Positions 1 to 23,421 of a stretch of 49,160 nucleotides of DNA are shown in pieces. Every line of letters begins with the position of its first letter. Position 1 is the first letter of the stretch. The translations under genes were made by a program, and so were the position numbers. The notes below the pieces were generated by a model. The model saw nothing but the letters and a program-made list of their open reading frames with translations, made no database searches and was not told the origin of the DNA. The DNA is taken from NCBI GenBank assembly GCA_011174795.1, contig DUEY01000005.1:4885-54044 (forward strand). The letters are read 5' to 3'. This DNA is from Dehalococcoidia bacterium. Lineage in GTDB: Bacteria > Chloroflexota > Dehalococcoidia > SZUA-161.

Positions 1-735
1 GAGCCTGACCGGGAGCCCCTGGCGCCGGCGCTTTCACAGAGCAATTACCAGAGTGGTGCCATGGGTGCCGCAGCGACGATGGGCGCTGTATTTGCTCGTA
101 TGTCGACCGGAAAGGGGCAACTCGTTGATATATCCGAGTCCGAGGTCTGGGCCACCATCCATCTCGGGCATGGGGTGCATCTGGGCATTTTCGAAGGTCG
201 GAAGAGCATCAGGGCGGGGCATCGTACGATAAGTGTCTACCCCTGGTGCATACTGCCCTGCAGGGACGGCTACATGTGCATGATCGCTATTCAGGGCTAC
301 CAGTGGAAGCGGTTCCTCGAGGCTATGGGAAGTCCGGAGTGGATGAAGGACGAAAGGTTCAGGGACAGGATTATGATGGCCTGGCAGTATGCCGACGAGG
401 TCGATTCCCTGGTTGAAACGTGGCTCCTCGATCATACCAAGGAAGAGATATTCGATATTTGCCGGCAGAATCAGATTACCTTTGCACCGGTGAGAGACGT
501 AGCCGAGGTTGCCCACGACCCCCATTTCGAGGAACGGGGCTATTTTGTGGAGATGGACCGTCCTTCAGCAGGTGTGCTGAAGTATCCAGGGGCGCCTTAC
601 AAGCTTTCCGAGACGCCGTGGCGGTTGTACCGCCCTGCGCCGCTTCTGGGTGAGCATAACGAGGAGATTTACTGCAGCCGCCTGGGATATTCCAAGGACG
701 AACTGGAAAAATTGCGGGCAGACGGGGTTATCTAA
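1..735 (+). CDS. Family III CoA-transferase (CaiB/BaiF), 5'-truncated by the window edge; appears to lack the catalytic Asp
   Basis: Frame is open from base 1 (EPDREPLAPALSQSNYQSGAM...). Motifs TGKGQLVDIS and RPAPLLGEHNEEI are typical of CoA_transf_3. Confidence 0.9.
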   Translation, partial: EPDREPLAPALSQSNYQSGAMGAAATMGAVFARMSTGKGQLVDISESEVWATIHLGHGVHLGIFEGRKSIRAGHRTISVYPWCILPCRDGYMCMIAIQGYQWKRFLEAMGSPEWMKDERFRDRIMMAWQYADEVDSLVETWLLDHTKEEIFDICRQNQITFAPVRDVAEVAHDPHFEERGYFVEMDRPSAGVLKYPGAPYKLSETPWRLYRPAPLLGEHNEEIYCSRLGYSKDELEKLRADGVI

Positions 736-766
736 CGCAATAAGCACGTTATTACTATACTAAAAA

Positions 767-825
767 CCGTTCGTGGTGAGCTTGTCGAACCATGAACAGC
801 CCTTCGACAGGCTCAGGGCGAACGG
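767..825. repeat. REP-like imperfect inverted repeat (hairpin)
   Basis: CCGTTCGTGGTGAGCTTGTCGAA-13nt-TTCGACAGGCTCAGGGCGAACGG; the 23-nt arms are complementary apart from 4 positions. It resembles a widespread dispersed palindromic repeat family (from memory). Confidence 0.75.
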
Positions 826-838
826 CAAAGATAGGTAA

Positions 839-858
839 GCTGGCCGACGTCGGCCAGC
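839..858. repeat. Perfect 20-bp palindrome
   Basis: GCTGGCCGACGTCGGCCAGC is its own reverse complement. Confidence 0.8.
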
Positions 859-891
859 CAACACTGAAGCAAAGCAAAGGGAGTAGCAAAC

Positions 892-2100
892 ATGGCGAAC
901 TATCCTCTGGAAGCTTATCGCGTCGTTGATTTCTCATGGGTATGGGCCGGCCCTTTGCTGGGCATGATACTGGCCGATATGGGCGCTGAGGTCATCAAGG
1001 TGGAAACGAATAAGCGGCTGGATAGCGCCAGATTAACGCCGGGGCGCTCCACTGTAGGGCCGGAGACAGACTTCGTTTTCCACAGCATGAACCGGAATAA
1101 GCTGGGCATCACTGTGGATATGTCTCACCCTAGAGGTGCGGAGGTGATAAAGGAGCTTATAAAGATAAGCGATATAGCTGTGGAGAACTTCTCGCCGAAG
1201 GGACTGAAGAATCTCAATCTTGATTATGCGGTGCTGAGCGAGGTCAATCCACGGCTTATCATGATTTCACTGCCGGCTGCTGGCCAGTACGGGTCGCTGT
1301 CGGATATCGTCACCTATGCTCCGTCTCTGGGTGCTCTCTGCGGCTATTCGAGTTTAATCGGTTATCCCGGTGAGCGGGTGCTGGGGGAGCAGACGCCCTA
1401 TCTCGATATTAACTCGGCTATACACGGGGCGTTTGCTGTCATGGCTGCTCTCTATTATCGTGAGAGGATAGGGAAGGGGCAGTATATCGACATGGCGCAG
1501 ATAGAGGTAGGAGCGTCTACTATTGGGGAGGCGTTCATGGAATATTTTATGAACGGCAGGGTGATGGGAACTGCGGGGAACCGCAACCGGGCGATGGCTC
1601 CGAACAACAACTACCCGTGTAAAGGTGAGGATAAGTGGGTATCCATAGCGGTAAAGACCGACGATGAGTGGCGCGGCTTGTGTGATGCTATCGGGAACCC
1701 GCCATGGACAGGGGAGGAGCGGTTCAGCGACAGGGCCAATCGGATGAGCAACCAGGACGAACTTGACAAGCTGGTATCTGCCTGGACGATCGAATTGAAT
1801 TATTACGAGGCGATGGATATTTTACAGAAGGCGGGTGTGGCGGCGGCTCCCTGCCTGGATTTGACGGAGCGGTTCTCCGACCCGCACTTCGAGAGCAGGG
1901 AGACTCATTTCCAGGTTGAACACCCTGCGACGGGTGTGGATATTATCGCGGGGATACCCTTTAAGCTGAGCGAAACGCCGTGTGAAGTGCGAAGACCCGC
2001 ACCGATGCTGGGCGAGCACAACGAGTATGTCCTCGGGAAGCTTCTGGGCAAGAGCAAAGATGAGATTGCGCAGCTTATAGAAGAAAAAGTCATCTATTAA
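892..2100 (+). CDS. Family III CoA-transferase (CaiB/BaiF), Asp-containing subunit
   Basis: RVVDFSWVWAGP, LADMGAEVIKVE, NRNKLGI, PYLDINSA (catalytic Asp position), APMLGEHN; RBS AGGGAG. Confidence 0.93.
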   Translation: MANYPLEAYRVVDFSWVWAGPLLGMILADMGAEVIKVETNKRLDSARLTPGRSTVGPETDFVFHSMNRNKLGITVDMSHPRGAEVIKELIKISDIAVENFSPKGLKNLNLDYAVLSEVNPRLIMISLPAAGQYGSLSDIVTYAPSLGALCGYSSLIGYPGERVLGEQTPYLDINSAIHGAFAVMAALYYRERIGKGQYIDMAQIEVGASTIGEAFMEYFMNGRVMGTAGNRNRAMAPNNNYPCKGEDKWVSIAVKTDDEWRGLCDAIGNPPWTGEERFSDRANRMSNQDELDKLVSAWTIELNYYEAMDILQKAGVAAAPCLDLTERFSDPHFESRETHFQVEHPATGVDIIAGIPFKLSETPCEVRRPAPMLGEHNEYVLGKLLGKSKDEIAQLIEEKVIY

Positions 2101-2125: not shown

Positions 2126-3313
2126 TTAGCCGCGAGGCAGTCCCAAGCCCCTCATGGCGACGACGATGCGGTTAATCTCGGATGTGCCGCCGGCAATGGT
2201 GTCGCCTCGGGTGTAGAGATAGGCCTGTTCTATGGCTCCACCGACCGGCGCCCTGGTTCCGCCTTCCAACTGACCGTAAAGCCCCATGAGCCCCACGCCT
2301 ATATTAGAGGACTCCTGAAGCAACTCGGCGCAGAAGGTCTTGCTCATTGATGCCTGGTAGCTGGGCACGAGCCCTTTATCTTCCATCCAGGCGATATTAT
2401 AAGCCATCAGTCGCCCTATTTCGCTCTTAATGGCTATTTCAGCCAGCTTCTGCCGTACTATCGGGTTTTCTATCAAGGGTTTTCCGTTCCGCTTTGCCTC
2501 TTTGGAGAATTCCAGAATATCGGAAAGCATACGCCGGTTGCGGGCTATGTACTCAATGGCGGCGGTGCGCTCGAAGTCGAGGGCTCTCATCATGCAGCGC
2601 CAGCCGTCATTCTCCTCACCCACCAGGCAGTCCTTCGGGATGCGGACGTCATCGAAGAAGACCTCGGAGTTGCAGTATTCACCGGCGATGTTGACCAGGG
2701 GGTTAACGGTTACCCCCGGTGTTTTCATATCCAAGAGGAATAGACTGATGCCTTTGTGTTTGGGAACTTCGGGGTCGGTCCTGGTCGCCAGCCAGCACCA
2801 GGATGCGCGGTGTGCAGCGCTGCACCAGATCTTCTGACCGTTGACTATATAGTCATCGCCCTTTTTCACCGCCCTGCATTTCAGGGAGGCCATATCGGAG
2901 CCAGCCTCGGGTTCACTGTAGCCGGTACACCAATAGGTTTGCCCTGAGGATATCCCGGGAAGGTGCCTTTTCTTCTGCTCGTCAGTGCCGAATATTATCA
3001 GCGACGGCCCGATCCACATGACGCCGCCCACACCCATATCGCAGCCGGGCACCATGTTGTAGGACATCGTTTCCCTGTAGATAAGGTGCTCCATGCGGGT
3101 GGCATCACGACCGCCATACTCCTTGGGCCAGGACATGGTGAGCAGGCCTCTGGCTGCAAGTTTCTTGGACATACGCTGGGCTGCTTCCCAGCCTTCGTCT
3201 GTGCCGTACTCCTCGTTCACCGCTCCTTTCCAATCGGAGTCCATTTCGGTAGCGATAAAATCGTTCAATTCTTTACGCAGGGCTTCCTCTTTCTCGGTGA
3301 AACCGAATCTCAT
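2126..3313 (-). CDS. Acyl-CoA dehydrogenase (Glu-containing subunit type of heteromeric ACADs)
   Basis: WPKEYGG, YSEPEAGSD, NGQKIW, LDFER, TIAGGTSEI, GLGLPR. Confidence 0.93.
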   Translation of the reverse strand: MRFGFTEKEEALRKELNDFIATEMDSDWKGAVNEEYGTDEGWEAAQRMSKKLAARGLLTMSWPKEYGGRDATRMEHLIYRETMSYNMVPGCDMGVGGVMWIGPSLIIFGTDEQKKRHLPGISSGQTYWCTGYSEPEAGSDMASLKCRAVKKGDDYIVNGQKIWCSAAHRASWCWLATRTDPEVPKHKGISLFLLDMKTPGVTVNPLVNIAGEYCNSEVFFDDVRIPKDCLVGEENDGWRCMMRALDFERTAAIEYIARNRRMLSDILEFSKEAKRNGKPLIENPIVRQKLAEIAIKSEIGRLMAYNIAWMEDKGLVPSYQASMSKTFCAELLQESSNIGVGLMGLYGQLEGGTRAPVGGAIEQAYLYTRGDTIAGGTSEINRIVVAMRGLGLPRG

Positions 3314-3735: not shown

Positions 3736-5088
3736 CTACATGCATTGCAAGATGCCCCTGGCCCAGGGACAATCACCGCACGGCAGGGCGTAATCGTAGC
3801 AGTCTTTTCTGAATACGGGCGCTACTATTGAGTAGCAGCCGTCCGCGTGGGGACAGTCACCGCAGGGCGCAAAATCGAACCTGTCGACATACCTGCGAAA
3901 GCTGCGGTATTCCCTCGAGTTCCATATCTCTTTAAAGTCCTGCTGTAGAACGTTTCCGAAGCTTACACTGGTGATACTCTTCTCCCTGTGATTGACATAA
4001 CATGTATAGGAATGGTAGAGATTATGGCAGGGTCGTACGAATCCGTCCCAGCTAACGAAGGCAATCCTGTCCCGTATAAAGCCGCATTCCCTTCGAGTTC
4101 TCGGTATCAATGGTGGAAGGTCTAAGGCGATACTCAGTTCCTGGGCTTTGGCGCTGGCCTGGTCGAATATCTGGGAAACCTGAGCGATAGAGGTACCGTC
4201 TCTCGACACAAGGCTTTTCAAATTCAGCAGGACGTTCTGCTCCCGGGCGCTCGTTACAATTTTCTCGAGTAGCCTGAACTGCTTCTCCATGTATTCGTTG
4301 AATCCGGGGACGCTTGTCCATACGGGCTTAGTCGAGCGCATTTTATCCTTCAGTGGCGGGATGCCGAAGAGGGCATTAGAGTAGGCTTCTACCTCGATGT
4401 CGTCGAGGGAAAGGTCCCAGCCGAAGGTTTGCGATTCGGCCTTAGCCTCGTTGAAAAGCTCTATAGCAAGGTCGGAGTCGGAGTCGTAGAGAATCTGCTG
4501 GTTCATCTCCTCAGTGTGAGGCAGCAGGTTGGTAACGATAATGAAGCTTATGCCGTGCTGAGCCGCGAGGTCTACCAGTTGGGGCAACTCGGCGACGTTT
4601 CTCTTCATGGCAACGAACTCGAAGCCGAGCCTGGGGGTCTGACTTTCGAGCTTTTTCTTAGCCTCGTTCAGCAACTGGATACCCCGGAGCACCTCATCCA
4701 GGGTAGCCCCTTTCCTGATTGCGTTGAAGGTCTCGGCGGTTGCGCCGTCGATCGAGATGACAACGTCATCGATTCCTGAGGACACAAGCTGTTCCGCAAT
4801 ATGCCTGTTGATAAGCGTGGCGTTGGTGGTGAGGCTTAGAGTACCGTTTGGGGGGAGGTGTGCCTTGCCGAGCCGGATCATCTCGATGAGGTTTTCGTTC
4901 ATTAGCGGCTCGCCGATGCCGATGAGATTGACTGTTTCGATTTCGGGGAAGACCGGCAGCAGGGCCTTGTAGGTCTCGAGGGTCATATCCCCTGTCTCTT
5001 CCTTGACTACCTCTCTAATGCACATGATGCAGTTAAGGTTACATCTCGATGAGACCTCGATATTCAGCTTCTTCGGAATGTCATCCAT
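3736..5088 (-). CDS. Radical SAM/SPASM putative metalloenzyme (tungsten-oxidoreductase-related) maturase
   Basis: CNLNCIMC; GIGEP; C-terminal CGF..VSWDG..PC..LYH..FGN...CGDC...CGDCPWARGILQC, as in TIGR04311/TIGR04317-like families (from memory). Confidence 0.8.
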   Translation of the reverse strand: MDDIPKKLNIEVSSRCNLNCIMCIREVVKEETGDMTLETYKALLPVFPEIETVNLIGIGEPLMNENLIEMIRLGKAHLPPNGTLSLTTNATLINRHIAEQLVSSGIDDVVISIDGATAETFNAIRKGATLDEVLRGIQLLNEAKKKLESQTPRLGFEFVAMKRNVAELPQLVDLAAQHGISFIIVTNLLPHTEEMNQQILYDSDSDLAIELFNEAKAESQTFGWDLSLDDIEVEAYSNALFGIPPLKDKMRSTKPVWTSVPGFNEYMEKQFRLLEKIVTSAREQNVLLNLKSLVSRDGTSIAQVSQIFDQASAKAQELSIALDLPPLIPRTRRECGFIRDRIAFVSWDGFVRPCHNLYHSYTCYVNHREKSITSVSFGNVLQQDFKEIWNSREYRSFRRYVDRFDFAPCGDCPHADGCYSIVAPVFRKDCYDYALPCGDCPWARGILQCM

Positions 5089-5274: not shown

Positions 5275-6519
5275 TTAGAGCCTTCTGCGCACGAGATACG
5301 AAGCAAGGAATTTCCTGTCAACGTTGGGGGTGCGGTACAACTGGAATATCATAGAATCTCGGTACATAAGCTCCAGGGGCCAGCCTTCCTCCCGTTCGAT
5401 ACCGCGTGAGCCGAGGAACTCGATAGCCTTCTGGCATGCCTCGATGGCGGCAGGGAAACAGTGGCGTGCAGCGAGGACGCCCCATTTGCCATGGCTTGCC
5501 TCCATATCGCCGGCATCCCAGAGCTTACAGGCCTTGGTGCAGATAGCACGCCCGGCCTCCGCGGCAACCCACATATCCGCTATGGGGAAGTGGATTCCCT
5601 GGTACTCGATGAGGGGGCGCTCCCAGCGTATGTTGGTCTGGGTGTACTCTACAGCGATTTTTATGGCTGCCTCGGTGACGCCGACAGCCTGGAAAGCCTG
5701 GTTCGCCATATGTTTGTTCATACCGTCAACCAGGGCGTGAATGCCTTTACCTTCGGGAGCTGCAAGGTACTTCTTGTGAACCTTGCAGTCTTTGAATATT
5801 ACCTCATAGCGGGCACAGCCCCACCGCGCGCCCATGAGGTCGCCTTCACGTCCGCGGACGATACCTTCGGCATCGTCATTGACGATGAACAGGGAAAGGC
5901 CGCTGGTGCGCTTGGTAGGGTCGGTTTTCATCAGTGCCATATGCCACTGGAGGCCGAAAGGACCGGGGGTGGTCATTGTCATGAACCATTTGGGACCGTT
6001 AAGGACATAGTAGTCGCCGTCAAGGACAGCGTTGCCGCGCATCCCGCCCATGTCCACGCCGGACTCGGGGTCGGTAGCCATCACGGTGCAAAACCCCCCG
6101 TCCATCGTTCGCTTGAAATACTCACGCTTGGCGTCCTCATCCGGTGTCCATTTCTCAAGGATATGGACCCAGGGCTCGCCGTAGGCGAAGGCGTCATCGA
6201 GCCTGGGGGTGTAGCCTATCTTGGCTATCTCAGCCGAGAGCAGGCTGCAATCGAGAAGGTTCCACCCTGGCCCGCCGTATTCCTTGGGAATAGTCCTGCC
6301 GTAGAAGCCGGCGTTTATGATAGATTTCATCAGACCGTAGTAGACCTCCGACATCTCGGTCATCGCCAGTGAGCCGCCGAGGCGGTCCAATCCCCTGCGG
6401 TTGGGCAGCCACCATTCCTCGATAATATCCCTGGCCTTCTCCAGGTACTCGTACATCGTGGGGGTCCACTCTTCGGGGTGGTCATACGGGTCATAGATAT
6501 TGAGCTTCATCAGGTCCAT
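5275..6519 (-). CDS. Divergent acyl-CoA dehydrogenase-fold protein
   Basis: IPKEYGGPG, TDPESGVD, LNGPKWFMT, EVIFKDC, LELMYRD are present, but the catalytic/FAD motifs are altered; RBS AAGGAGG. Confidence 0.85.
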   Translation of the reverse strand: MDLMKLNIYDPYDHPEEWTPTMYEYLEKARDIIEEWWLPNRRGLDRLGGSLAMTEMSEVYYGLMKSIINAGFYGRTIPKEYGGPGWNLLDCSLLSAEIAKIGYTPRLDDAFAYGEPWVHILEKWTPDEDAKREYFKRTMDGGFCTVMATDPESGVDMGGMRGNAVLDGDYYVLNGPKWFMTMTTPGPFGLQWHMALMKTDPTKRTSGLSLFIVNDDAEGIVRGREGDLMGARWGCARYEVIFKDCKVHKKYLAAPEGKGIHALVDGMNKHMANQAFQAVGVTEAAIKIAVEYTQTNIRWERPLIEYQGIHFPIADMWVAAEAGRAICTKACKLWDAGDMEASHGKWGVLAARHCFPAAIEACQKAIEFLGSRGIEREEGWPLELMYRDSMIFQLYRTPNVDRKFLASYLVRRRL

Positions 6520-6585
6520 TTCGTATCGCCTCCTTAAGGTGTCTTGACCGTTGCCGACTCGGTATGCAGGTAAGACAACAGAACT

Positions 6586-6615
6586 AGTTTACTTGTTTTG
6601 CCTTGTTTGTGTCAA
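6586..6615 (-). promoter_or_regulatory. Sigma70-type promoter for the divergent ACAD-fold gene
   Basis: TTGACA-18nt-TAAACT on the minus strand. Confidence 0.45.
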
Positions 6616-6683
6616 GGCAGGGCAATTGACATAATAATAACATTTTTTATCGATGATGTTGCTGCATTGCAAGAGTGCGAGAA

Positions 6684-6712
6684 TTGACTTGCAAGGTATT
6701 AGTTGGTACAAT
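6684..6712 (+). promoter_or_regulatory. Sigma70-type promoter (extended -10) for the glycyl radical enzyme
   Basis: TTGACT-17nt-TACAAT, preceded by TGn. Confidence 0.65.
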
Positions 6713-6840
6713 TTTAGTTTGGGGTTAGTGCGCCCCGATTCCATTATGTCATGGTGAGACTAAAGTCACATACAGGCCATCGGTAATAGCTTAGAATGAA
6801 TCACAACCGAAGATGCTTGGACAGTGAAAGGAGGCCCTAG

Positions 6841-9294
6841 ATGGCTAAAACAGCGGAGAGAAAGACGGAGACACAGCGGATAGCGGACAAGGTGCGGTAC
6901 AGGACGATGATGGGCCAGCGTACGGGCAGGGTCGAGGAGCAGGAGAAGCTGGGTAAAATAAGCGATATCCGACCGACGCTGAGGCTTGATGTCGAGCGTG
7001 CCAGGCACGTTACGCAGGCATATAAGGAGACAGAGGGCGAGCCGATTGTCCTCAGGCGGGCGAAGGCGATGGCCAAGCATCTGGACAATATGACGATATA
7101 CATCAATGATTATGACCGCATTGCCGGTAATTCTTCACGTTCTCCCGACCACGTAATAAGCTATCCTGAGCTCTACTCCCGCTGGACAGATAAGGCCATC
7201 GAGATGGGCTACAAGGATATGGTGAGTGACGAAGAGCGGGAGGAGATGCACGAGATACTCAAGTACTGGTTCAATAAGTCGGTGCAGGGGGCGGAACGTT
7301 CTTATCTTGCCGAAGAGGATAAGCCCTACTGGTCCTACATGAACCAGGGTGTCTTTGTCTGGGTGCATGGCGCCCACTCTGGCCAGGTTCCGAACTACGA
7401 GAAGGTGTTTAAGGTTGGACTGAAAGGGATACTTAAAGAGGCGCAGGACAAGCTGGAGGAGGTTAAAGCCGACAGGGAGCTTGTACGTGACGACCCTAAG
7501 GAATTTCTGAAGCAAAAAGCGTTCCTGGAGGCAGTAATCATAAGCATTGAGGCTGCTATCAGGTGGGCACACCGGTATGCCGACCTGGCGAAGGCGATGG
7601 TCAAGGAGGAGAAGAGACCCGAGAGAAAGAAACAGCTGGAGAAGATTGCGAAGAGCTGTTCATGGGTTCCCGAGAACCCTCCGCGGTCATTCCACGAAGT
7701 CCTGCAGGCATGGTTCCTGCTCTTCCTGCTCGTGAGGGTGCTCGACATCCAGACCAGCGGTATCGGTGACAGGGTAGACTACCTGTGGTATCCGTTCTAC
7801 AAGAAGGACAAGGAAGAAGGGAGGATAACACCGGAGGAAGCCAAGGAGTTAATGGAGTTCATCTGGCTCAAGTTCACCGAGTTGGCTGACTTCAATGCCC
7901 CCATTATGGGCAGCGGCGCCCATACCACGCCCCGCTATATAACGATAGGCGGCCAGGACCGTCTGGGGCGGGATGCTACCAACGAGTTGACCTACCTGAT
8001 TATGGAAAGCGTCAAGTCGCTCGGTCTGGTAGAGCCGATGATGGTGGTCAGGGTTCACCGCAACACGCCGGATGAGTTCCTCTATCGCTTCACCGACATT
8101 ATGAGGGAGGATGCCGGGCATTACGGCATCTTCAACGATGAGTTCATGGTACGGTGGCTGATAAGCAAGGGAATGCCGATTGAGGATGCCCGCAATTACG
8201 GTATCGAGGGTTGCATGAGGTGGGCTGTTATCGGCAAGCCCATGGGACACCGCGGCATCGCCGGCGTAGGATTTGCCCTGCCAAAGTGCCTGGAATATGC
8301 GTTAAATCAGGGCAGGGATGACAAGTTCTTCGGCGGCAAACAGGTAGGGCCAAAGACGAAGGACCCGCTGAAATTCAAGTCAATCGAGGACGTGATACAG
8401 GCGTATCTGGAGCAGGTGAAGTTCTTCACCGAGAAGATAGTGATTTACAGCAATATCACGGATGCTCTCGAGGAGGAGTGGCTGCCGCAGCCTTTCAACT
8501 CGGCATTGCTGGACGGCTGCATTGAGAATGCCAAGGATGTCAGGGATATCCATTACTGGCACAAGACCAATATGCAGCCTGTTGGGCAGACAACGGTCGT
8601 TAACGCCCTGGCGGCGATGAAGAAGCTGATCTTCGAGGATAAAAAGGTAACCATGGCCCAGCTATTGCAGGCACTCAAGGATAACTGGGTTGGCCATGAA
8701 GAGCTGAGGCAGATGTTCCTCGATGCTCCCAAGTTCGGCAATGACGATGACTACGTAGACCTCTTTGCCCGGGATGTACACATCAGGACATGCGAGACGA
8801 TACACCAGTTTAAGACCATCTATGGATTCAACGTTCAGTCCGACGGCAGCGGCAGCGCCAGCTATTTCTCATTCAGCGGTCTTACCGGAGCCACACCCGA
8901 CGGCAGGAAAGACCGCGACGTTTTCACCGATGGCACTGTCTCCCCGGCGCCAGGCACCGATAAGAAGGGGCCGACCGCAGTCCTGAGGTCGGTTGCCAAG
9001 ATAGACCCGCTGCTGACCTTCAATCACCTGTTCAACCAGCGGTGGATGCCGGAGTTCCTCGAGGGTGATAACAGGTCGAAGTTCGTGGCTTATTTGAAAA
9101 CGTTCATAGACCTCGGCATTCACCATATCCAGGGCAACGTGATTGACGATAAGGTTCTGCGCGATGCCCAGAAGCACCCTGAGAACTACGAGAGGCTGGT
9201 GGTGAGGGTCGCTGGCTTCAGCGCCTATTTCACCGATATGCACAAAGAGGTGCAGGACCAGATTATCGAGCGCACGAAGCAGCGGTTCAACTAA
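6841..9294 (+). CDS. Glycyl radical enzyme (PFL-like superfamily), uncharacterised class
   Basis: 817 aa; C-terminal LVVRVAGFSAYF (Gly792); Cys loop YGIEGCMRW (Cys458); PKFGNDDDYVD; GATPDGR; RBS AAGGAGG. Confidence 0.95.
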   Translation: MAKTAERKTETQRIADKVRYRTMMGQRTGRVEEQEKLGKISDIRPTLRLDVERARHVTQAYKETEGEPIVLRRAKAMAKHLDNMTIYINDYDRIAGNSSRSPDHVISYPELYSRWTDKAIEMGYKDMVSDEEREEMHEILKYWFNKSVQGAERSYLAEEDKPYWSYMNQGVFVWVHGAHSGQVPNYEKVFKVGLKGILKEAQDKLEEVKADRELVRDDPKEFLKQKAFLEAVIISIEAAIRWAHRYADLAKAMVKEEKRPERKKQLEKIAKSCSWVPENPPRSFHEVLQAWFLLFLLVRVLDIQTSGIGDRVDYLWYPFYKKDKEEGRITPEEAKELMEFIWLKFTELADFNAPIMGSGAHTTPRYITIGGQDRLGRDATNELTYLIMESVKSLGLVEPMMVVRVHRNTPDEFLYRFTDIMREDAGHYGIFNDEFMVRWLISKGMPIEDARNYGIEGCMRWAVIGKPMGHRGIAGVGFALPKCLEYALNQGRDDKFFGGKQVGPKTKDPLKFKSIEDVIQAYLEQVKFFTEKIVIYSNITDALEEEWLPQPFNSALLDGCIENAKDVRDIHYWHKTNMQPVGQTTVVNALAAMKKLIFEDKKVTMAQLLQALKDNWVGHEELRQMFLDAPKFGNDDDYVDLFARDVHIRTCETIHQFKTIYGFNVQSDGSGSASYFSFSGLTGATPDGRKDRDVFTDGTVSPAPGTDKKGPTAVLRSVAKIDPLLTFNHLFNQRWMPEFLEGDNRSKFVAYLKTFIDLGIHHIQGNVIDDKVLRDAQKHPENYERLVVRVAGFSAYFTDMHKEVQDQIIERTKQRFN

Positions 9295-9322
9295 GACAGG
9301 CTACAGGCGTGGCTTGTATTTT

Positions 9323-9366
9323 GGGGAAGGGCGGCCGAAGGCGTAAGGCCGCCCTTCCCCGTTTTT
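9323..9366. terminator. Bidirectional intrinsic terminator between convergent genes
   Basis: GGGGAAGGGCGGCC-10nt-GGCCGCCCTTCCCC followed by GTTTTT. Confidence 0.8.
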
Positions 9367-9385
9367 GTAGCATTATGAGCGGTGC

Positions 9386-9778
9386 CTATGACTCGGCCTT
9401 CTTGAAGGCGTGCAGGGTGGTATTGTCGTCTATCTTCTCGAAGTCTACCTCGACGGGCATGCCGATGTAGACCTCCTCAGGTTCCATGAGACCGTGGGTT
9501 ATCAGCCGTGGTCCTTCCTCGAGCTCTACGAGCAGCACCGGCCAGGGATAGGGCATGGTTGCATGCTGTATGGTATAGCTGTGCACGGTTCCTTTGCCGC
9601 TGCACTTGGTCCATTCATACTCGAATGAGTTGCAGTAGGGGCACATCTCTATCGGCCAGAAACGGAACTTGCCGCAGTCTTTACATTTCTGCAGCAGCAA
9701 CTCGTGGCGCTTCAGGCCGTCGTAGTATTCCTGGTTTATAGGTCCCGGCCACGGGGCCAGTCTCGGTACCTCAGACAT
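9386..9778 (-). CDS. DUF35 Zn-ribbon/OB-fold protein (thiolase/aldolase partner)
   Basis: LLLQKCKDCG...CPYC...GKGTVHSYT...VELEEGPRL. Confidence 0.9.
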   Translation of the reverse strand: MSEVPRLAPWPGPINQEYYDGLKRHELLLQKCKDCGKFRFWPIEMCPYCNSFEYEWTKCSGKGTVHSYTIQHATMPYPWPVLLVELEEGPRLITHGLMEPEEVYIGMPVEVDFEKIDDNTTLHAFKKAES

Positions 9779-9790
9779 AGGACTTCTCCT

Positions 9791-10951
9791 CTAGGGTGAA
9801 CGTAGAATCAATGCGCCGGTAGGGATGCCGCTGCCGGCGGTAACGAGCACATGTTTGCAGTCGGGCACCTGTACCGGCGAGGTGCCCCTTATCTGGCGCA
9901 CGCCCTCGACTATCTGGTTCACGCCGTGGATGTAGGCCTCGGAGAGGCAACCGCCGCTGGTATTGCAGGGAAGCCTGCCGTCTATCTGCAGGGCGCCGTC
10001 TCTGACAAATGGACCGCCCTCCCCGAACTTGCAGAAGCCGAAGCTCTCCAACTGCATTATCACCAGCGGGGTGAAGGCGTCGTAGAACTGGGCGCAGTCG
10101 ATATCCTCAGGCCCTATTCCCGCCTCCTTCCACAGGTGCGGGGCAAGGCGGGTGTATTCCTCCAGGTCGGCGATATTCTCGCGCTGATAGCTGGTCATCA
10201 TCTCAATCCAGCTGCCCGTCCCCTGCTCCGCAGCCATGATATAGACCGGCTTCTGCTTCAGGTCTTTCGCCCTCTCCGGTGAGGTCACGATGAGGGCAGC
10301 TGCGCCGTCCGTCTCCTGGCAGTAATCGAACAGGCGCAGCGGGTAGGCGATCATTCGGGCGTTGGCGTGGTCCTCGAGCGTCAGGGGCCTGTCGTGCATC
10401 ATAGCCTTCGGGTTCATGTTGGCGTGCCTCCTGAAGGCAACGGCAACCTCGCCTAAATCGGTGGTCTTGGTGCCGTAGAGGTGTATGTGTCTGATAGCCA
10501 TGACCGCGACCATAGAGCCCGGTGCCATCAGGCCGAAGGGTATAGAGTACTGGAAGTGTCCTGCCATAGGCATCGCCGACGCCATTTGTCCGTAGCGGAA
10601 CCCTGAGCGTTCATTCAGCGCCCGGAAGCATGCCACATACTTAGCCTTGCCCAGTGCCACCGCCATAGCCGCCATTTGCACGATACCACAGCCAGCGCCG
10701 CCGCCGAAGAAGACCTCGGGGAAGAACCTCAGGTTCTCGATGCCGAAGTTCCTGGCTATCTCGTCGACCTGGTTGCTGTCTACCGAAAACCTGACGATAC
10801 CGTCGAGTTCCTTGGGACTTATCCCGGCGTCCTCACAGGCTGCCTTTATCGCCTCTAGCGCCAGGCGCATCTCGCTGCGGCCGGAGTTCTTGGAGTACTC
10901 CGTCTCACCGATGCCGACGATACAGGCCTTGTCTTTCAAAGAATCCGCCAT
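9791..10951 (-). CDS. Ltp2-like thiolase-fold protein (probable acyl-CoA retro-aldolase)
   Basis: IVGIGETEYSKNSGRSE, CQETDG, FYDAFT, NTSGGCLSEAYIHG; both Ltp2-type Tyr residues are present. Confidence 0.85.
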   Translation of the reverse strand: MADSLKDKACIVGIGETEYSKNSGRSEMRLALEAIKAACEDAGISPKELDGIVRFSVDSNQVDEIARNFGIENLRFFPEVFFGGGAGCGIVQMAAMAVALGKAKYVACFRALNERSGFRYGQMASAMPMAGHFQYSIPFGLMAPGSMVAVMAIRHIHLYGTKTTDLGEVAVAFRRHANMNPKAMMHDRPLTLEDHANARMIAYPLRLFDYCQETDGAAALIVTSPERAKDLKQKPVYIMAAEQGTGSWIEMMTSYQRENIADLEEYTRLAPHLWKEAGIGPEDIDCAQFYDAFTPLVIMQLESFGFCKFGEGGPFVRDGALQIDGRLPCNTSGGCLSEAYIHGVNQIVEGVRQIRGTSPVQVPDCKHVLVTAGSGIPTGALILRSP

Positions 10952-11005
10952 TTTTCAACCTTCTAATGTCTTAGTATACAGCCGCATGTGACCCAGCAAT
11001 AGCCA

Positions 11006-11467
11006 CTAGCTGCCGGAACCCCGGGTAGGCAAGGCCATGGTGATCTGGGCATTACAGAAGGGGCCTTCCTGGGTCACGGAGTTGACCTGTAGTTCAACCA
11101 GGTGCAGGCCTGACAGATACCCTTCGTCCTCGCCCCCGATCCATTTCCTGATCACACTACCTGATACTGTCATCGTATCGCCAACACAGCAATTACCTTC
11201 GATGTTGAAACGGGTCTTCTTTAGTTCTCCTTCGGGACCGCTCCAGTCGGTCGCCAGCCTGGACAATATACCTTCGGAGTGCATAATATTAACGATCATA
11301 TCCCTCTGCTGTGCCTTTAGAGCGAAATCTTTGTCATGGTGCATCGGGTTGGTGTCTCTCGTAGCCCAGGCACCGCCACTGATCTTGACCGCTGTCATTT
11401 GCATCGAGTAGGAGCCAATATCCTGCCCCTCCGTTACATCCTCCCAATAAACCGTATGATGAGACAT
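11006..11467 (-). CDS. MaoC-family hydratase subunit (ChsH1-like)
   Basis: ATRDTNPMHHD hydratase motif; start moved to the ATG at 11467 behind RBS AAGGGAG. Confidence 0.8.
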   Translation of the reverse strand: MSHHTVYWEDVTEGQDIGSYSMQMTAVKISGGAWATRDTNPMHHDKDFALKAQQRDMIVNIMHSEGILSRLATDWSGPEGELKKTRFNIEGNCCVGDTMTVSGSVIRKWIGGEDEGYLSGLHLVELQVNSVTQEGPFCNAQITMALPTRGSGS

Positions 11468-11469
11468 CT

Positions 11470-11979
11470 TCAACTCCCTTCGCCTTGTTCTTTCGGTTTA
11501 TACTTCAGCACAGTCCTGACCTCTCGTCCAACCATCTCACCCTTCTGGTTATAGTATGTTTGGGTCGTGGTGATGAAGTGCCCGTCCCCGATGCGTGTCC
11601 TCTTCATGTCGGATACGCTGTCGAGCTTCATGATGTAGTATAGCTGGTCACCGGGGCGCACCGGCTTGTGGAACTCATGTATCATGTCTGTGGCAATCCA
11701 GGTGTCGACGCCGGGGAGTTCGAGTTCCGCCATGGGCATCCAGGGAAACTCAGGGAATGGCCACATCCGGGGCATGCACCACACCATTAGCATCTGGGGA
11801 GGCGCAATGATGCCGCCATACTTGCTCTTCTTTGCGTACTCCTCATCGGTGTACAGGGGATTTGCGTCCTCCATCATTTCACAATAGTGCCTGATCATCG
11901 ACTTATCAACTTCGTCAGGGGCATAGAAGGGCTCGGATTCCTTGCCTATCAACGCCAAATCCTTTTCACTTAGTGCCAT
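11470..11979 (-). CDS. MaoC-family dehydratase N-terminal type protein (ChsH2 N-domain-like)
   Basis: IRHYCEMMEDANPLY...YGGIIAPP...EFHKPVRPGD. Confidence 0.85.
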   Translation of the reverse strand: MALSEKDLALIGKESEPFYAPDEVDKSMIRHYCEMMEDANPLYTDEEYAKKSKYGGIIAPPQMLMVWCMPRMWPFPEFPWMPMAELELPGVDTWIATDMIHEFHKPVRPGDQLYYIMKLDSVSDMKRTRIGDGHFITTTQTYYNQKGEMVGREVRTVLKYKPKEQGEGS

Positions 11980-12059
11980 TTAAGTTCACCTCCATGGGTA
12001 TGGTTAATATAGTACTTCTCCGCCTTCTTCCTATGCATACCGAGACCGGCGGATTGATA

Positions 12060-12854
12060 TTATTTCCCCTTCCAGACCGGTGGCCGCTTCTCCATGAATG
12101 CTTTTGGTCCCTCTTTGGCATCCTCTGTATCGAAGATAATCCAGGACTGCAGTCTCTCGATGGAGTATGCTGCATCGAGGGCAAGGCCTCGGAGCACGGA
12201 TTCCTTTATCGCCTGCACCGCAAGCGGGCCATTGGAGCAGATTTTCTCGGCATACTGCATTGCTGTCGGCATGAGTTCCTCGCGGGGCACGACCTTGTTA
12301 ATCAGACCTATCTCGTAGGCTTCCTGGGCGGTGAACTGGTTGGCGGTGAGCAGCATCTCCATGGCGCGGCAGTAGGGTATCTGGCGGGGGAGCCTCACCG
12401 TCGTGCCGCCACCGGGGAAAAGCGCCCAGGTGGGCTCCATAACGGCGAAAACTGCGTTCTCAGAGGCGACCCTGATATCCGTGCCGAGGAGCATCTCCAA
12501 CCCGCCACCAAGACAGTAGCCGTTAACTGCTGCGATTACCGGCTTCCAGAGGTCGAACCCGCGGAGCACGGCGTTGAGGGGTCTGGTATCCGACTGGAGG
12601 TCCCTGAGGTCGGCCTCGGTGATTCTGGGGAGGAACGTCTGGAGGTCGCCGCCGACGGAGAAGGCAGTCTTGCCGGCGCCGGTGATGATGGCTACCCAGA
12701 TATTGCGGTCGTCCCGGATATCCATCCAGGCGTCGGAAAGACGCTCCATCATTTCGTCGTCCATGGCGTTCATAGCCTGGCGGCGGTTCATGGTGACGAT
12801 TGCGATATGGTCCTTCTTCTCATAGATTACTGCTGGTTGCTTCTCCTCTGCCAT
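12060..12854 (-). CDS. Enoyl-CoA hydratase (crotonase family, both catalytic Glu present)
   Basis: KPVIAAVNGYCLGGGLE...MEPTW; start reassigned to MAEEKQ (ATG 12854, RBS AGGAGG). Confidence 0.9.
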   Translation of the reverse strand: MAEEKQPAVIYEKKDHIAIVTMNRRQAMNAMDDEMMERLSDAWMDIRDDRNIWVAIITGAGKTAFSVGGDLQTFLPRITEADLRDLQSDTRPLNAVLRGFDLWKPVIAAVNGYCLGGGLEMLLGTDIRVASENAVFAVMEPTWALFPGGGTTVRLPRQIPYCRAMEMLLTANQFTAQEAYEIGLINKVVPREELMPTAMQYAEKICSNGPLAVQAIKESVLRGLALDAAYSIERLQSWIIFDTEDAKEGPKAFMEKRPPVWKGK

Positions 12855-12901
12855 GTTTGCCTCCTGTATTTTTATAGTGAGACTTTTAGTAATTCCTGTG
12901 C

Positions 12902-13318
12902 CTAGCTCTCTACCGGCTTGAACTTGGGCAGGTACCAATCCTGGTCTTCGACCTTCTCGAAGAACAACTCGACAGGCATATCAACATATAAATCCTCGTT
13001 TTTGCAGCCTACTATATTGGTATGCATCCGGGGCCCTTCCTCCAGCTCCACGATGGCGACATGGAAGGGTGTATCAAAGGCTGGATAGAGCGCCTGGTGT
13101 GTGACTTCCCAGGTGAAGATTTTAGCCTTTCCGCTCGCCTTGACACGCTGGAAATTCGTGCTCATGCACCTGGGACAAAGGATACTGGGGGGAAGCCAAT
13201 AGTAACCGCAGTCATCGCACCTCTGGATGAGCAACTCCTGTCTCTGGCAGCTATCCCAGTAGGGCTTTGAGTCTTCACTGGGCAACGGAAGCGGTTTAGG
13301 TATCTTGAATTCCGCCAT
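12902..13318 (-). CDS. DUF35 Zn-ribbon/OB-fold protein
   Basis: LLIQRCDDCG...CPRC...VELEEGPRM; start reassigned to MAEFK (RBS AAGGAGGT). Confidence 0.9.
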   Translation of the reverse strand: MAEFKIPKPLPLPSEDSKPYWDSCQRQELLIQRCDDCGYYWLPPSILCPRCMSTNFQRVKASGKAKIFTWEVTHQALYPAFDTPFHVAIVELEEGPRMHTNIVGCKNEDLYVDMPVELFFEKVEDQDWYLPKFKPVES

Positions 13319-13320
13319 GA

Positions 13321-14490
13321 TTACCTCCTTAAGATCATGGTAGAGCAACTGAAGGTTGGAGGATACTCGTTGACCACGCCGCCGAAGCCGGTAACGTAAG
13401 CGGTCTCCGCATCCTTCACCTGCCTCTCACCACAATCTCCCCTAAGCTGTTGTACTGCCTCTATGATGTGGCCGAAACCGAACGTGTGGCCTTCTGAGAG
13501 CAGGCCACCGGCAGTGTTGCAGGGGAGCTCTCCACCGAGCTCTATCCTGCCGTCCTCGACGAATGGGCCACTTTCTCCTACTTTACAGAAGCCCCCCGAC
13601 TCCAGTTGGACTATAAAGACGATAGTGTAGGCGTCGTAAAGCTGACAGATATCTATATCCTTGGGGGAGAGCTTTGCCATTTTATAAGCTGTATCGCCGG
13701 CCTTTGCCCATACAGCCCAATCGGATACATCAGGACGGCGCCAGGGACGCAGCAGCGGTGCTCCGTGGGCCTGGCCAAATCCGCTGATATAAACGGGCTT
13801 GTGCTTGAGGTTCTTAGCCCTCTCCGCTGAGGTAACTACTACGGCTGCACCGCCATCGGTCCAGGCGCAGCAATCGAACAAGCGCAGGGGCTCCACCACC
13901 CAGCGAGAATTCTGATGGTCCTCCAGCGTCATGGGCCTGCCATACATCTGGGCGTTTGGGTTCATGTTGGCGTGTTTTCTGCAGGCGACAGCGATTGCGC
14001 CGAACTGCTGGCTGGTGGTCCCGAAGTCGTGCATATGCCTGCGGGCTATCTGGGCAAGGAACGGTGTCGCCCCGATTTCTCCATAGGGCAGGGTAAACTC
14101 AAAGCCGGGAGGTAAACCGAGAGGGACGTCGATGGGATTGTTCTGCCAGCCATAGCAGCAGACAACGTTATTGCATATGCCTGCGTTGATTGCCATGGCA
14201 GCCATTTGTACTAGGATGATGGGTGTAGCGCCACCGGCATCTACCGTTGAGGTGAAGCCGGAGTGGATTCCCAGCAGGTCAGCCGCTCTTCCTGCAAAGC
14301 CATGACGCTCGCCCTGCTGTGACGGGTGCACAAGAAGAAGCCCGTCGATGTCATCCTTGGTGAGTCCGGCATCCTCTATAGCTCTCTTGCAGCCCTCGAG
14401 GGCGAAGCCCATGGTACTGCTTTCGGGGTTCTTCCGGGCGAGCTTGGTTATGCCAACTCCAGCTATGGCATATTTATCCTTCAAGCTCAA
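13321..14490 (-). CDS. SCP2-type thiolase-family protein
   Basis: AIAGVG, PLRLFDCC..TDGG, LYDAYT, NTAGGLLSEGH; TTG start with RBS AGGAGGT. Confidence 0.88.
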   Translation of the reverse strand: MSLKDKYAIAGVGITKLARKNPESSTMGFALEGCKRAIEDAGLTKDDIDGLLLVHPSQQGERHGFAGRAADLLGIHSGFTSTVDAGGATPIILVQMAAMAINAGICNNVVCCYGWQNNPIDVPLGLPPGFEFTLPYGEIGATPFLAQIARRHMHDFGTTSQQFGAIAVACRKHANMNPNAQMYGRPMTLEDHQNSRWVVEPLRLFDCCAWTDGGAAVVVTSAERAKNLKHKPVYISGFGQAHGAPLLRPWRRPDVSDWAVWAKAGDTAYKMAKLSPKDIDICQLYDAYTIVFIVQLESGGFCKVGESGPFVEDGRIELGGELPCNTAGGLLSEGHTFGFGHIIEAVQQLRGDCGERQVKDAETAYVTGFGGVVNEYPPTFSCSTMILRR

Positions 14491-14539: not shown

Positions 14540-15475
14540 TTAGCTTAGAGACAGAATCCTGGCGGCGTTCTCCCCCAGGATGGCGTTAACTTCTGCCTCG
14601 GTGAAGGTTATCCCCTCCGGGGCTTTCTGTGGCAAGTCCCTGATAATATCTGCGTAGGCTCTCGTGGACATGAGTGCGGAGACATAAGGATTGTCGGTTC
14701 CGAACAGGACCCTATGAGGTCCAAGACGGTCCAGGGCATGCCTCAGAACCTTGCAGAACTTGAGGTAATTGGCATGGGCTACATCCTGCCAGGCGGAGAT
14801 GTCGGTCATAATGTTGTATCTCAACCCGGCGGTATAGAAGAGCTGCTCATGCCAGCCGAACGCCATGTGTCCAGCGGTTATTATCATATTGGGGAATTCT
14901 TGTGTCACATCGTCGAGGTGTATCGGGTCACCGTACTTGGCGCGCAGGGGGACAGCGCCAAACTGTCCTGTATGACATGTCACCGGGAGACCCAGTTCGT
15001 AAGCCTTTTCCAGAACCTTGTAGGTAACTGCATCGTTCATGAAAAAGCCTGTCTGTGGATAGAGGTTCAGGCCCTTGAGCCCCCATTCCTTGATAGCATG
15101 CACCAAGAAATCCGCTGCGTTTGGTCTACGGGCATCGACGGTGGCGTAGGCTATTATTTTATCCGGGTGCTTGCTTTGAAGGTCTGAGAAGGCCTTGAGT
15201 TGACCTTCGAGAGATACCTCAGGCTCGCCATACATGAGCCAGAAATCCATGGGCAACAGTACGGTCTTATCGATTCCATTGGTCTCCATGTCGTTGATTA
15301 ATGCTTCTCCCTCGGGATCCCAAAGGGCGGGAATCATGGTCTCCATTACCATTTCTGGCGGCATTTCTATTCCCAGGTTCCTCATGCCGTTGATATACAT
15401 ACCGTTTACCGTTTGCCACCATCCCTCGGAGTACCATTCCCGTGCTGCTAAGTGATAATGGGCATCGATAATCAT
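14540..15475 (-). CDS. Amidohydrolase family 2 protein
   Basis: MIIDAHYH, CHTG, GHM, RVLFGTDNP; start reassigned to ATG 15475. Confidence 0.88.
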   Translation of the reverse strand: MIIDAHYHLAAREWYSEGWWQTVNGMYINGMRNLGIEMPPEMVMETMIPALWDPEGEALINDMETNGIDKTVLLPMDFWLMYGEPEVSLEGQLKAFSDLQSKHPDKIIAYATVDARRPNAADFLVHAIKEWGLKGLNLYPQTGFFMNDAVTYKVLEKAYELGLPVTCHTGQFGAVPLRAKYGDPIHLDDVTQEFPNMIITAGHMAFGWHEQLFYTAGLRYNIMTDISAWQDVAHANYLKFCKVLRHALDRLGPHRVLFGTDNPYVSALMSTRAYADIIRDLPQKAPEGITFTEAEVNAILGENAARILSLS

Positions 15476-15513
15476 TTCTACTCCTTTCTCCTCAGGCAAC
15501 CACCTATAGCAGG

Positions 15514-16677: not shown

Positions 16678-16709
16678 AGCATCTTCCTTTCACGCCTTCG
16701 TTCTGCGGC

Positions 16710-17843: not shown

Positions 17844-17858
17844 AGCAGCCCCCTTATT

Positions 17859-19124: not shown

Positions 19125-19156
19125 TTAGATTTTCCCCTTTCGGTGATATTTTTAAT

Positions 19157-20353: not shown

Positions 20354-20411
20354 AGTTACCTCTTTCCGGCTACCGGTTGCTTACGGATGTTTTTCATACG
20401 CTGTACGGCTA

Positions 20412-21218: not shown

Positions 21219-21248
21219 CTACCGTCTCCTATGTCTTTTTAATAAAGT

Positions 21249-22049: not shown

Positions 22050-22280
22050 TTGGCAACAACCCCTCCCTTCAACTTGCTCAGGGGTGGTAAACTCCTCATG
22101 TAAGGAGGAGGCAATATCTCATAGCACGGGCAAACTTGAGTGAGTCAGCCTGCAAATCGGGTGGCCGCGGCGGTCCACAGCCAACATAGCAATGGATGTT
22201 AGCCGTAACGCTATTGCAGAACCACTGACGCTGATTATTGCTAGAAAGAAACCCTTTCTATTTTATTAGCTATACGCTGC

Positions 22281-23177: not shown

Positions 23178-23218
23178 ATTTGTACCTCCTTTTTTATTGG
23201 GCTAGTAAGCTATTCCTG

Positions 23219-23338
23219 TTAGGGGGAGATGTTGTCCTTATTCGTGTTCGAGGGTAAAAAGAAGTTCTTCTTCGGATGTTGCTCATCCTTGAAGAACAGG
23301 TTTATTCTGCTCACTGATTCTCTTCTTTGATAAGGCAT
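23219..23338 (-). pseudogene. 39-aa open fragment resembling an internal piece of a family III CoA-transferase
   Basis: MPYQRRESVSRINLFFKDEQHPKKNFFLPSNTNKDNISP aligns by eye with RIGPFFKDDPHLEKSGPFLHLNTNKKSI of the 24789..26009 protein. Confidence 0.6.
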
Positions 23339-23358
23339 GCGCAGAAATCGCGTTTGTT

Positions 23359-23388: not shown

Positions 23389-23421
23389 GGTAAACACTAG
23401 GAGTGAGGAACTTCAGTTCTC

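Follow-up and report, generated by a model that had tools for sequence, protein, structure and literature searches.

A glycyl radical enzyme family with a Cys-x-Arg loop in Dehalococcoidia and its linkage to CoA-transferase and beta-oxidation genes

We analysed a stretch of 49,160 nt, hereafter the window, from a Dehalococcoidia bacterium (assembly GCA_011174795.1, contig DUEY01000005.1, positions 4,885-54,044 forward), which carries at 6841-9294 a gene for a glycyl radical enzyme (GRE). By its sequence hallmarks this gene encodes an intact PFL-like GRE, a radical enzyme of the oxygen-sensitive kind. Its product matches the PFL-like domain PF02901 (561.1 bits, residues 49-666) and the Gly_radical domain PF01228 (90.3 bits, residues 699-798) of Pfam. 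Gly792 lies within R-V-A-G-F-S-A-Y-F, where R-V-A-G-F spans residues 789-793, and the active-site loop, G-C-M-R-W, has Cys458 as its sole cysteine. When aligned with HMMER on solved GREs, Cys458 falls on Cys433 of glycerol dehydratase (GDH) and Cys466 of IseG, and Arg460 falls on the catalytic Glu435 of GDH and on Glu468 of IseG. A first-pass annotation of this DNA had noted Gly792, the single Cys458 and the replacement by Arg of the Glu two residues after the cysteine (Cys+2); the translation of the open reading frame (ORF), the Pfam matches and the HMMER alignments confirm all three. The Cys-Cys pair of PFL is absent, since the loop reads G-C-M, and the formate lyase model TIGR01255 gives only 93.3 bits for a cut-off of 994.2.

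The gene was also described as monocistronic, with its own promoter and terminator, and this description holds: the genes on either side (5275-6519 and 9386-9778) lie on the minus strand, leaving the GRE alone on its own, a TTGACT-17-TACAAT site precedes it and a hairpin follows it (Table 1). The hairpin has a folding energy of -38.7 kcal/mol (z -5.3), and none of 200 shuffled sequences folds equally well. The leader (6450-6900) has no Rfam match.

Table 1. Positions of the GRE gene, its predicted signals and its neighbours in the window
Feature	Positions	Strand	Remarks
Family-III CoA-transferase gene pair	1-2100	+	First gene cut by the window edge; syntenic in G004 and G020
Acyl-CoA dehydrogenase	2126-3313	-	Best NCBIfam match a PimC-like model, below cut-off
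Radical SAM/SPASM maturase, TIGR04311 type	3736-5088	-	404.8 bits, cut-off 400; syntenic in G004, G020 and G007
Acyl-CoA dehydrogenase	5275-6519	-	Divergent from the GRE gene
Sigma-70-like promoter site, TTGACT-17-TACAAT with TG	6684-6712	+	10/12 matches; in part conserved among orthologues
18-nt conserved motif (6756-6773), then after 18 nt TAGAAT (-10-like, 6792-6797)	6756-6797	+	Probable regulator site or second promoter
Ribosome-binding site GAAAGGAGG	6826-6834	+	Strong
GRE coding sequence	6841-9294	+	ATG start, 817 amino acids; from ORF listing and translation
GRE codons	Cys458 8212-8214; Arg460 8218-8220; Arg471 8251-8253; Asp668 8842-8844; Gly792 9214-9216	+	
Intrinsic terminator	9322-9368	+	15-bp G+C-rich hairpin (9322-9361) and T run
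DUF35/ChsH2-OB and Ltp-type thiolase, MaoC-type hydratase pair, enoyl-CoA hydratase, second DUF35 and thiolase-like pair	9386-14490	-	
Amidohydro_2 (PF04909) protein	14540-15499	-	
Three acyl-CoA dehydrogenases, thiolase, two enoyl-CoA hydratases, SDR, second family-III CoA-transferase pair	15514-26018	-	

The enzyme has many relatives. A homologue search scored 7998 candidates, 2940 of them with E <= 0.001, and the 120 that were listed share 52-94% identity with the query and come mostly from Dehalococcoidia metagenome-assembled genomes (MAGs). Names on these proteins are few and generic, such as 'formate C-acetyltransferase' or 'glycyl radical protein [Chloroflexi bacterium]'. Hence the word 'orphan', used in the first-pass annotation, stands only in the sense that no activase gene is adjacent; as to relatives it fails, because the 120 listed homologues form a conserved family. 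In the alignment of these homologues with the query (n=121), Gly792, Asp668 and Trp616 are present in 121/121 sequences, Arg471 in 120, His176 in 119, Arg365 in 118, Arg568 in 118 (Lys in the other three), Cys458 in 117, Gln304 in 116, Arg460 in 103 (plus one Lys) and Trp461 in 93, with G-C-M-R-W intact in 87. The constant Gly792 means that the family lacks the hallmark of aminoacyl radical enzymes, in which Ala, Ser or Thr replaces the radical glycine.

Orthologues close to the query are frequent in its taxonomic family, where a GRE match occurs in 23 of 24 other sampled genomes and is full-length, at 83-88% identity, in 12. Elsewhere in the same order the best matches drop to 44-47% identity and have N-C-M-[AS]-W loops; all eight loci examined at 43-47% identity have an adjacent activase. 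Across an even sample of 401 genomes of the phylum just two others reach E 1e-200, both with other loops. A library of representatives clustered at 50% identity gave 8143 matches, the best at 43%, despite the dozens of relatives at 52-94% in a collection clustered at 90%; a family representative is seemingly missing from that library or hidden in it, and we do not take this result as evidence of rarity. Two of the sampled genomes have apparently broken copies: an orthologue at 85% identity reads through an in-frame TAG (G006:C102:97-2532), and another genome has only two separate GRE fragments (G017:C1, 1212396-1213142 and 1553724-1554224) with 74% identity over residues 6-254 and 84% over residues 650-816. 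Pseudogenes or errors of assembly may account for these cases.

Within the query's own subclade, four of the 121 proteins have lost the catalytic cysteine and kept the radical glycine (P0198, P0199, P0200 and P0187; three Ser, one Gly). The three Cys-to-Ser paralogues read A-G-S-S at the glycine motif, and further paralogues have the loop A-C-A-S-Y and no Arg460. Such changes suggest, as far as sequences can tell, rapid divergence or loss of catalysis following duplication. One might take them as a sign that the query too is a decaying or non-catalytic GRE-like protein. This is exceedingly unlikely, since the query and its orthologues retain Cys458, Gly792 and all the family-invariant residues, the orthologues are 83-94% identical over at least 12 genomes and have conserved upstream signals, and the genome retains the cognate activase.

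None of the NCBIfam equivalog models accepts this GRE. HpsG comes closest (567.4 bits, cut-off 1000), and the HpfG, HypD, CutC and PflD models give 459, 508, 448 and 383 bits for cut-offs within 1000-1109; the PFL2-3 subfamily model is also under its cut-off (546.9 vs 678.2). The best-scoring solved relatives are C-x-E eliminases of the same length and single-subunit make-up (PDB 1r8w, 5ymr, 9rco and 6lon), namely glycerol dehydratase (479 bits), IseG (443), propanediol dehydratase (414) and HpsG (403), followed by CutC and HypD (about 390), TutD (362) and MasD (361). The AlphaFold model (mean pLDDT 83.8, pTM 0.88) matches solved GREs of all classes in Foldseek, with query-normalised TM-scores of 0.82-0.88 that do not separate the classes.

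To place the family we built a tree of 119 sequences with FastTree (LG+gamma, 754 columns): 36 family members, 70 representatives of at least 740 residues, seven proteins resembling X-succinate synthases (XSS) and six references (two natural XSS alpha subunits, CutC, HypD and two YbiW-type isomerases). The decarboxylases HPAD, PAD, IAD and AAD are not in it, its deep nodes are weak and its root is set by midpoint only. The natural XSS adjoin BssC/TutF genes in Dehalococcoidia genomes, and one of them scores 1201 bits to MasD (PDB 9o8u). They came from a PF08201 search of the class. Two other routes to XSS references were dropped: homologues of the XSS-like protein P0019 are only some 800 residues long and, with some labelled 'benzylsuccinate synthase', include no bona fide XSS, and tblastn against plasmids gave CutC, HypD and YbiW-like genes only. 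The C-x-R family is monophyletic (support 1.0) and nested in a 51-tip clade (support 1.0) that has no C-x-E member and whose loops include C-M-W-P, C-M-I-P, C-V-Y-L, C-V-T-W, C-V-G-W, C-V-S-W, C-V-R-W and C-M-A-P. Its non-Glu neighbours in this clade (C-V-Y-L, N-C-M-[AS]-W and N-C-M-V-P) likewise have P-G-K after the loop, D-G-S/T at 668 and often an Arg in the Arg471 column; they differ in having no Arg at Cys+2.

The phylogeny thus places the GRE in no characterised class with the same residues, and the proposal of a candidate new class, made in the first-pass annotation, survives both this check and the equivalog models. The available part of a 2026 GRE review recognises seven classes, mentions whole clades without validated function and has no C-x-R enzyme among its classes (PMC13450708). 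Titles and abstracts of the GRE literature searched describe no C-x-R GRE, where supplementary trees or networks may already show the cluster unannotated; PMC3971608 makes no mention of a GRE, and the accessible portion of a cold-seep preprint reports assA and bssA/nmsA-like GREs in Dehalococcoidia and not the C-x-R family (10.1101/2020.02.02.928283). Neither that review text nor the abstracts searched describe the family or its coupling to CoA-transferases, whereas its fold and its use of the cofactor are of a known kind.

Because GDH, IseG and propanediol dehydratase match best, both by sequence and by Foldseek E-value, the enzyme might be a 1,2-eliminase or isomerase with a hydroxy- or amino-acid as substrate; the base would then have moved to Asp668 or His176 and the arginines would bind the carboxylate. 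The invariant Asp668, on a strand of the active site, coincides with IseG Arg676, and HypD-type enzymes already use carboxylated substrates (available text of PMC13450708). Yet in the same text every characterised eliminase and isomerase keeps C-x-E, with a Glu that is essential where tested, whereas the query reads C-M-R, and all the C-x-E tips of our tree lie elsewhere than the C-x-R family. GDH His164 also becomes Gln182 in the query, and there are no aldehyde-handling or microcompartment genes nearby in the window. We regard this reading as quite unlikely.

What the family shares with XSS and not with C-x-E enzymes is Met459, Trp616, Tyr751 and a D-G-x-x-S-P motif longer by one residue. 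Arg471 moreover falls in a MAFFT column in which both XSS references and most XSS-like proteins also have an Arg, and C-x-E enzymes a gap. This XSS arginine clamps fumarate (Arg508 in BSS, Arg492 in MASS), the other carboxylate being held in an oxyanion hole of the Cys loop (available text of PMC12358834). In TutD and MasD types as in the C-x-R family an Arg precedes by 10-11 residues the Lys at the start of the following helix, the stretch from Cys to Arg being two residues shorter in the C-x-R family. The identification of Arg471 with the fumarate-binding Arg of XSS is thus plausible and alignment-dependent. The first-pass annotation had put Arg471 in the register of the fumarate-binding Arg of BssA, which the MAFFT alignment and the helix register support and the pairwise alignments and structural model described below do not. 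Its wider suggestion of action on a carboxylate is plausible because a near-invariant Arg471 stands at the XSS fumarate-Arg position of the multiple alignment, and it also fits the CoA-transferase and beta-oxidation genes nearby.

These neighbouring genes for CoA-ester metabolism (Table 1), on which the first-pass annotation had not remarked, are the strongest functional clue. The cluster comprises two family-III CoA-transferase pairs, six acyl-CoA dehydrogenases (ACADs), three enoyl-CoA hydratases (ECHs), a MaoC pair, a short-chain dehydrogenase/reductase (SDR), an Amidohydro_2 protein, a classical thiolase and, each paired with a DUF35/ChsH2-OB protein, two Ltp-type thiolases. All enzyme types of the bbs pathway for benzylsuccinate are therein present, with the BbsA and BbsB models well under cut-off in the window (28-34 bits vs 250 and 111-135 vs 750). 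Beyond it lie IorAB-like, FrhB-like, enolase-superfamily and aldehyde:ferredoxin oxidoreductase genes. The aldehyde:ferredoxin oxidoreductase gene, at 31066-32934 on the minus strand, is 26 kb from the TIGR04311-type maturase, which stands beside the GRE in three relatives at 66-70% identity.

We followed this arrangement in relatives by tblastn of the window's proteins on their loci, several of which are short. The ECH-DUF35-thiolase block is syntenic in six relatives. Orthologues at 83-88% identity (G003, G023, G004, G020, G016 and G007) lie between the same ECH-DUF35-thiolase-Amidohydro_2-ACAD genes and ACAD/CoA-transferase genes. Paralogues at 71-79% identity, with D-C-M-R-H or D-C-L-R-H loops, head same-strand GRE(-GRE)-CoA-transferase-CoA-transferase-ACAD operons in G012, G013 and G014; at the G013 locus Pfam finds a PAS histidine kinase upstream and a transporter of the major facilitator superfamily (MFS) after the ACAD, and in G024 the contig ends just past a tandem GRE pair. 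With 50-81% identity, the CoA-transferases and ACADs encoded in these operons are orthologous to those that surround the activase in the query's own genome. More distant members (48-58% identity) come from records titled Dehalococcoidia, Chloroflexota (tar biofilm), Deltaproteobacteria, Nitrospinae, Desulfobacterales and Candidatus Solincola MAGs. In the record titled Deltaproteobacteria MAG one strand reads mutase-ACAD-ECH-Amidohydro_2-MaoC-MaoC-ACAD-ECH-ACAD-GRE, other such loci have an ECH with a TAXI-TRAP transporter, or carboxyltransferases, SDRs and an MFS transporter, and one has 2-hydroxyacyl-CoA-dehydratase-like genes with an activator ATPase. For the Amidohydro_2 protein of the window, the activase operon encodes a paralogue, and a homologue sharing 50% identity is encoded in a GRE operon from another phylum. 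Over 80 loci, at least one homologue of the window's acyl-CoA genes occurs at 14/20 C-x-R loci, versus 23/60 loci with other loops.

Tandem copies recur at these loci. A Dehalococcoidia MAG contig (L076) has at about 6600-14200 four C-M-R-W GRE copies by tblastn, at 50-58% identity to the query, and three full-length GRE ORFs in a row (6635-14190); GRE pairs in tandem are also found in G013 and G024 (L038 7557-12505; L039 7567-12514). On a Nitrospinae MAG contig (L078, 329-6675) two HgdA/B-like components, a BcrAD/BadFG-type activator ATPase and a C-M-R-W GRE, in last place, share one strand, a putative operon that would combine two distinct radical enzyme systems.

The assembly (1.81 Mb, 76 contigs, 89.6% complete) has a single PFL-like gene and a single activase above the TIGR02494 cut-off (370.2 vs 174.35 bits; C42:15142-16008), the next best candidate having 30.9 bits. 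This activase is neither a BssD nor a PflA equivalog, and its operon reads, on one strand, CoA-transferase III, CoA-transferase III, Amidohydro_2, ACAD, activase, ACAD. It is the predicted partner of the GRE, in line with the activation in trans that had been proposed for it. An adjacent activase is found at 2/20 C-x-R loci, versus 41/60 loci of the neighbouring loop types, so activation from a distance appears to be a habit of the family. The window was said to lack genes for an activase and for small Fe-S subunits, and this is correct: its sole radical SAM gene is of SPASM type, and neither BssC/TutF-type nor HpdC-type subunits (NF033716, no match) were found in the whole assembly. That radical SAM gene (3736-5088) was considered as an alternative activase and set aside, as it is of the TIGR04311/TIGR04317 maturase type, the window contains an aldehyde:ferredoxin oxidoreductase gene and the genome has a canonical activase. 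At five loci, small ORFs immediately preceding family GREs were likewise rejected as small subunits, having no Cys-rich motif and no mutual likeness; no conserved small ORF adjoins family members.

We therefore put forward a functional class of GREs that handles carboxylates, has a C-M-R-W loop and is coupled to family-III CoA-transferases and beta-oxidation, and we consider the chances for and against it to be evenly balanced. As to substrate, chemistry and the roles of the arginines, we infer the following. By homology, the activase on contig C42 would install the radical on Gly792 in trans and Cys458 would be the working thiyl. The substrate or product would be a free carboxylic acid, probably a dicarboxylate, held by Arg471 and the family-specific Arg460 in a pocket that would also include the conserved Arg365, Arg568, His176 and Asp668. 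This acid would be exchanged with the paired family-III CoA-transferase and a beta-oxidation-like module of ACADs, hydratases, SDR, thiolase/DUF35 and Amidohydro_2.

Several observations are at odds with all or parts of this proposal. Pairwise BLASTP pairs Arg471 with a different XSS residue, the AlphaFold model is unreliable in the Cys loop (pLDDT below 50 at residues 455-468), and an Arg in the 471 column is frequent also in sister clades that have no Arg460. The query family lies outside the clade that unites XSS with XSS-like proteins (15 tips, support 0.977), and the GRE is nearer in sequence to glycerol dehydratase than to TutD or MasD, by the scores given above. In the HMMER alignments, the sulfonate-binding Arg676 of IseG is matched by the invariant Asp668, which stands two residues ahead of the GDH Tyr640 position. 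This looks like a charge swap relative to C-S lyases, and Asp668 might form a pair with Arg460 or serve as a base, so that Arg460 need not contact the substrate; Asp668 is also invariant where Arg460 is lost and is therefore not merely a partner of Arg460. The incompleteness of the assembly is such that a second GRE or activase could have been missed. A BssC/TutF-type small subunit was not found in it (best PF08201 E-value 0.62), in a search that did not include a BssB-type model. On the side of gene context, the probes were the window's own neighbours, the related genomes are not independent, and the orthologous GREs are always alone on their strand and never co-transcribed with the cluster. 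One orthologue (G018) has no acyl-CoA cluster and lies near DegV, PlsY and SecA genes. In that genome (locus G018:C1:38500-58499) the GRE is 2.4 kb from a DegV-PlsY-kinase-Prs-SecA block that is 27 kb away in the window, and the acyl-CoA cluster therefore behaves as an insertion or deletion. The acid transporters (MFS, TAXI-TRAP) next to family members point to import of an acid and not to a hydrocarbon. Finally, the conserved motif of the GRE promoter is common to oxidative-stress genes and not to the CoA genes.

This 18-nt motif, whose core is invariant in 8/8 orthologous upstream regions, has six copies in the query's genome, all pointing toward a downstream gene, versus 1+1 for a reversed-pattern control. 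The five sites other than that of the GRE (C1:19510, C15:15816, C47:6951, C1:30458 and C62:19248) precede genes for a thioredoxin-reductase-like flavoprotein, a rubrerythrin, an alpha-2-macroglobulin-like protein, a small ORF with DnaK, and MsrB, and a -10-like hexamer follows the motif by 18-19 nt. Among 1.59 Mb of loci, the motif occurs only at orthologous GREs and at these sites of the query's own genome. Its geometry would fit a class II activator site centred near -41.5, and the GRE seems to belong to a small regulon of redox or stress type, under a control not common with the CoA genes.

The textbook case of a free acid passing from a GRE to a family-III CoA-transferase is that of XSS, followed by BbsEF and BbsG. 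Because of this precedent and of the XSS-like residues in the family, our leading specific guess, held tentatively and with a probability clearly below even, is a radical addition that has fumarate or a similar enoate as acceptor and does without small subunits. In such a step the thiyl would abstract a hydrogen from an organic substrate and the resulting radical would add to an arginine-clamped fumarate or similar enoate; the substituted succinate would then be activated with CoA and oxidised as in the bbs pathway, without beta and gamma subunits. From the gene linkage we read that the GRE and the CoA-transferase exchange a free acid; the acid transporters and polar pocket point to a co-substrate that is also an acid, and not a hydrocarbon. 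One might go further and speculate that this is the first subunit-free GRE hydroalkylase, adding a C-H of a non-hydrocarbon organic acid (e.g. alicyclic or branched) to fumarate between Arg460 and Arg471, a proposal that we deem doubtful.

A canonical hydrocarbon-activating XSS, joining an alkane or alkylbenzene to fumarate, is very unlikely. The GRE does adjoin a bbs-like gene set (CoA-transferase III pair, ACAD, hydratase, SDR, thiolase and DUF35) and resembles XSS (TutD, PDB 4pkc/5bwe; MasD, PDB 9o8u) in fold, in the C-M start of the loop and in the Arg before the P/A-K helix that MAFFT aligns with Arg471. Its query-normalised TM-score is highest to BSS and MASS (0.88 vs 0.85 for GDH), and some family members come from records titled tar-biofilm MAGs. 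However, it has about 30% identity to XSS and belongs to a separate clade, it carries C-M-R-W where TutD, MasD and the two natural XSS have C-M-S-P, which forms the oxyanion hole, and it lacks the beta, gamma and delta small subunits of these enzymes, the alpha-beta-gamma architecture being retained in all known benzylic XSS (available part of PMC13450708). True XSS with BssC/TutF genes occur in 4/301 sampled genomes of the class and in none of the six sampled genomes of the window's family (f1), and the surroundings of the query family, with acid transporters, differ from a hydrocarbon context.

The main rival to radical addition is a GRE decarboxylase at the end of a CoA pathway. Beta-oxidation would shorten an aryl- or alicyclic-alkanoate, the CoA-transferase would free the residual acid while activating fresh substrate, and the GRE would remove CO2 while Arg460 and Arg471 keep the carboxylate close to the thiyl. 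CoA-transferase genes do follow directly after paralogous GREs, and 2-hydroxyacyl-CoA-dehydratase-like genes with an activator ATPase precede a family member at one locus. If the thiyl cysteine of PAD is residue 482, the Cys+2 residue of decarboxylases is not always Glu. Residue Gln484 is catalytically essential in PAD, and the known GRE decarboxylases (HPAD, PAD, IAD, AAD), which likewise work on free acids, use acids made via 2-oxoacid:ferredoxin oxidoreductases (available text of PMC13450708); IorAB-type and aldehyde:ferredoxin oxidoreductase genes lie in the minus-strand cluster of the window. Yet the decarboxylase models score low (IAD 388.5 vs 1100 bits, HPAD 335.4 vs 1150), as do solved enzymes, with 361 bits for the arylacetate decarboxylase 7e7l and 248 for HPAD, below the eliminases. 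The comparison with these enzymes was made on scores. The HpdC-type small subunit of HPAD was not found in the assembly, as noted above, and an Arg salt bridge would probably hinder the one-electron oxidation of a carboxylate. Decarboxylation is thus an unlikely reading, and the probability that remains goes to chemistry not yet imagined.

If the proposed class is real, it has its own C-x-R signature, and radical addition would give subsurface Dehalococcoidia a route into the acids of buried organic matter in which beta-oxidation is blocked. New radical C-C or C-CO2 chemistry would bear on subsurface carbon cycling and on biocatalysis. Should the enzyme instead catalyse a variant of a known reaction, the Cys+2 Glu would be dispensable in that reaction. 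One GRE and one activase in a small genome make an unambiguous pair to express. Dehalococcoidia are common in marine sediment, where they would attack recalcitrant organic acids without oxygen. Among sequencing runs no RNA holder was listed; the DNA of the query itself was found in four metagenome runs from four studies, three of marine sediment and one of seawater, each carrying at least half of the sampled words.

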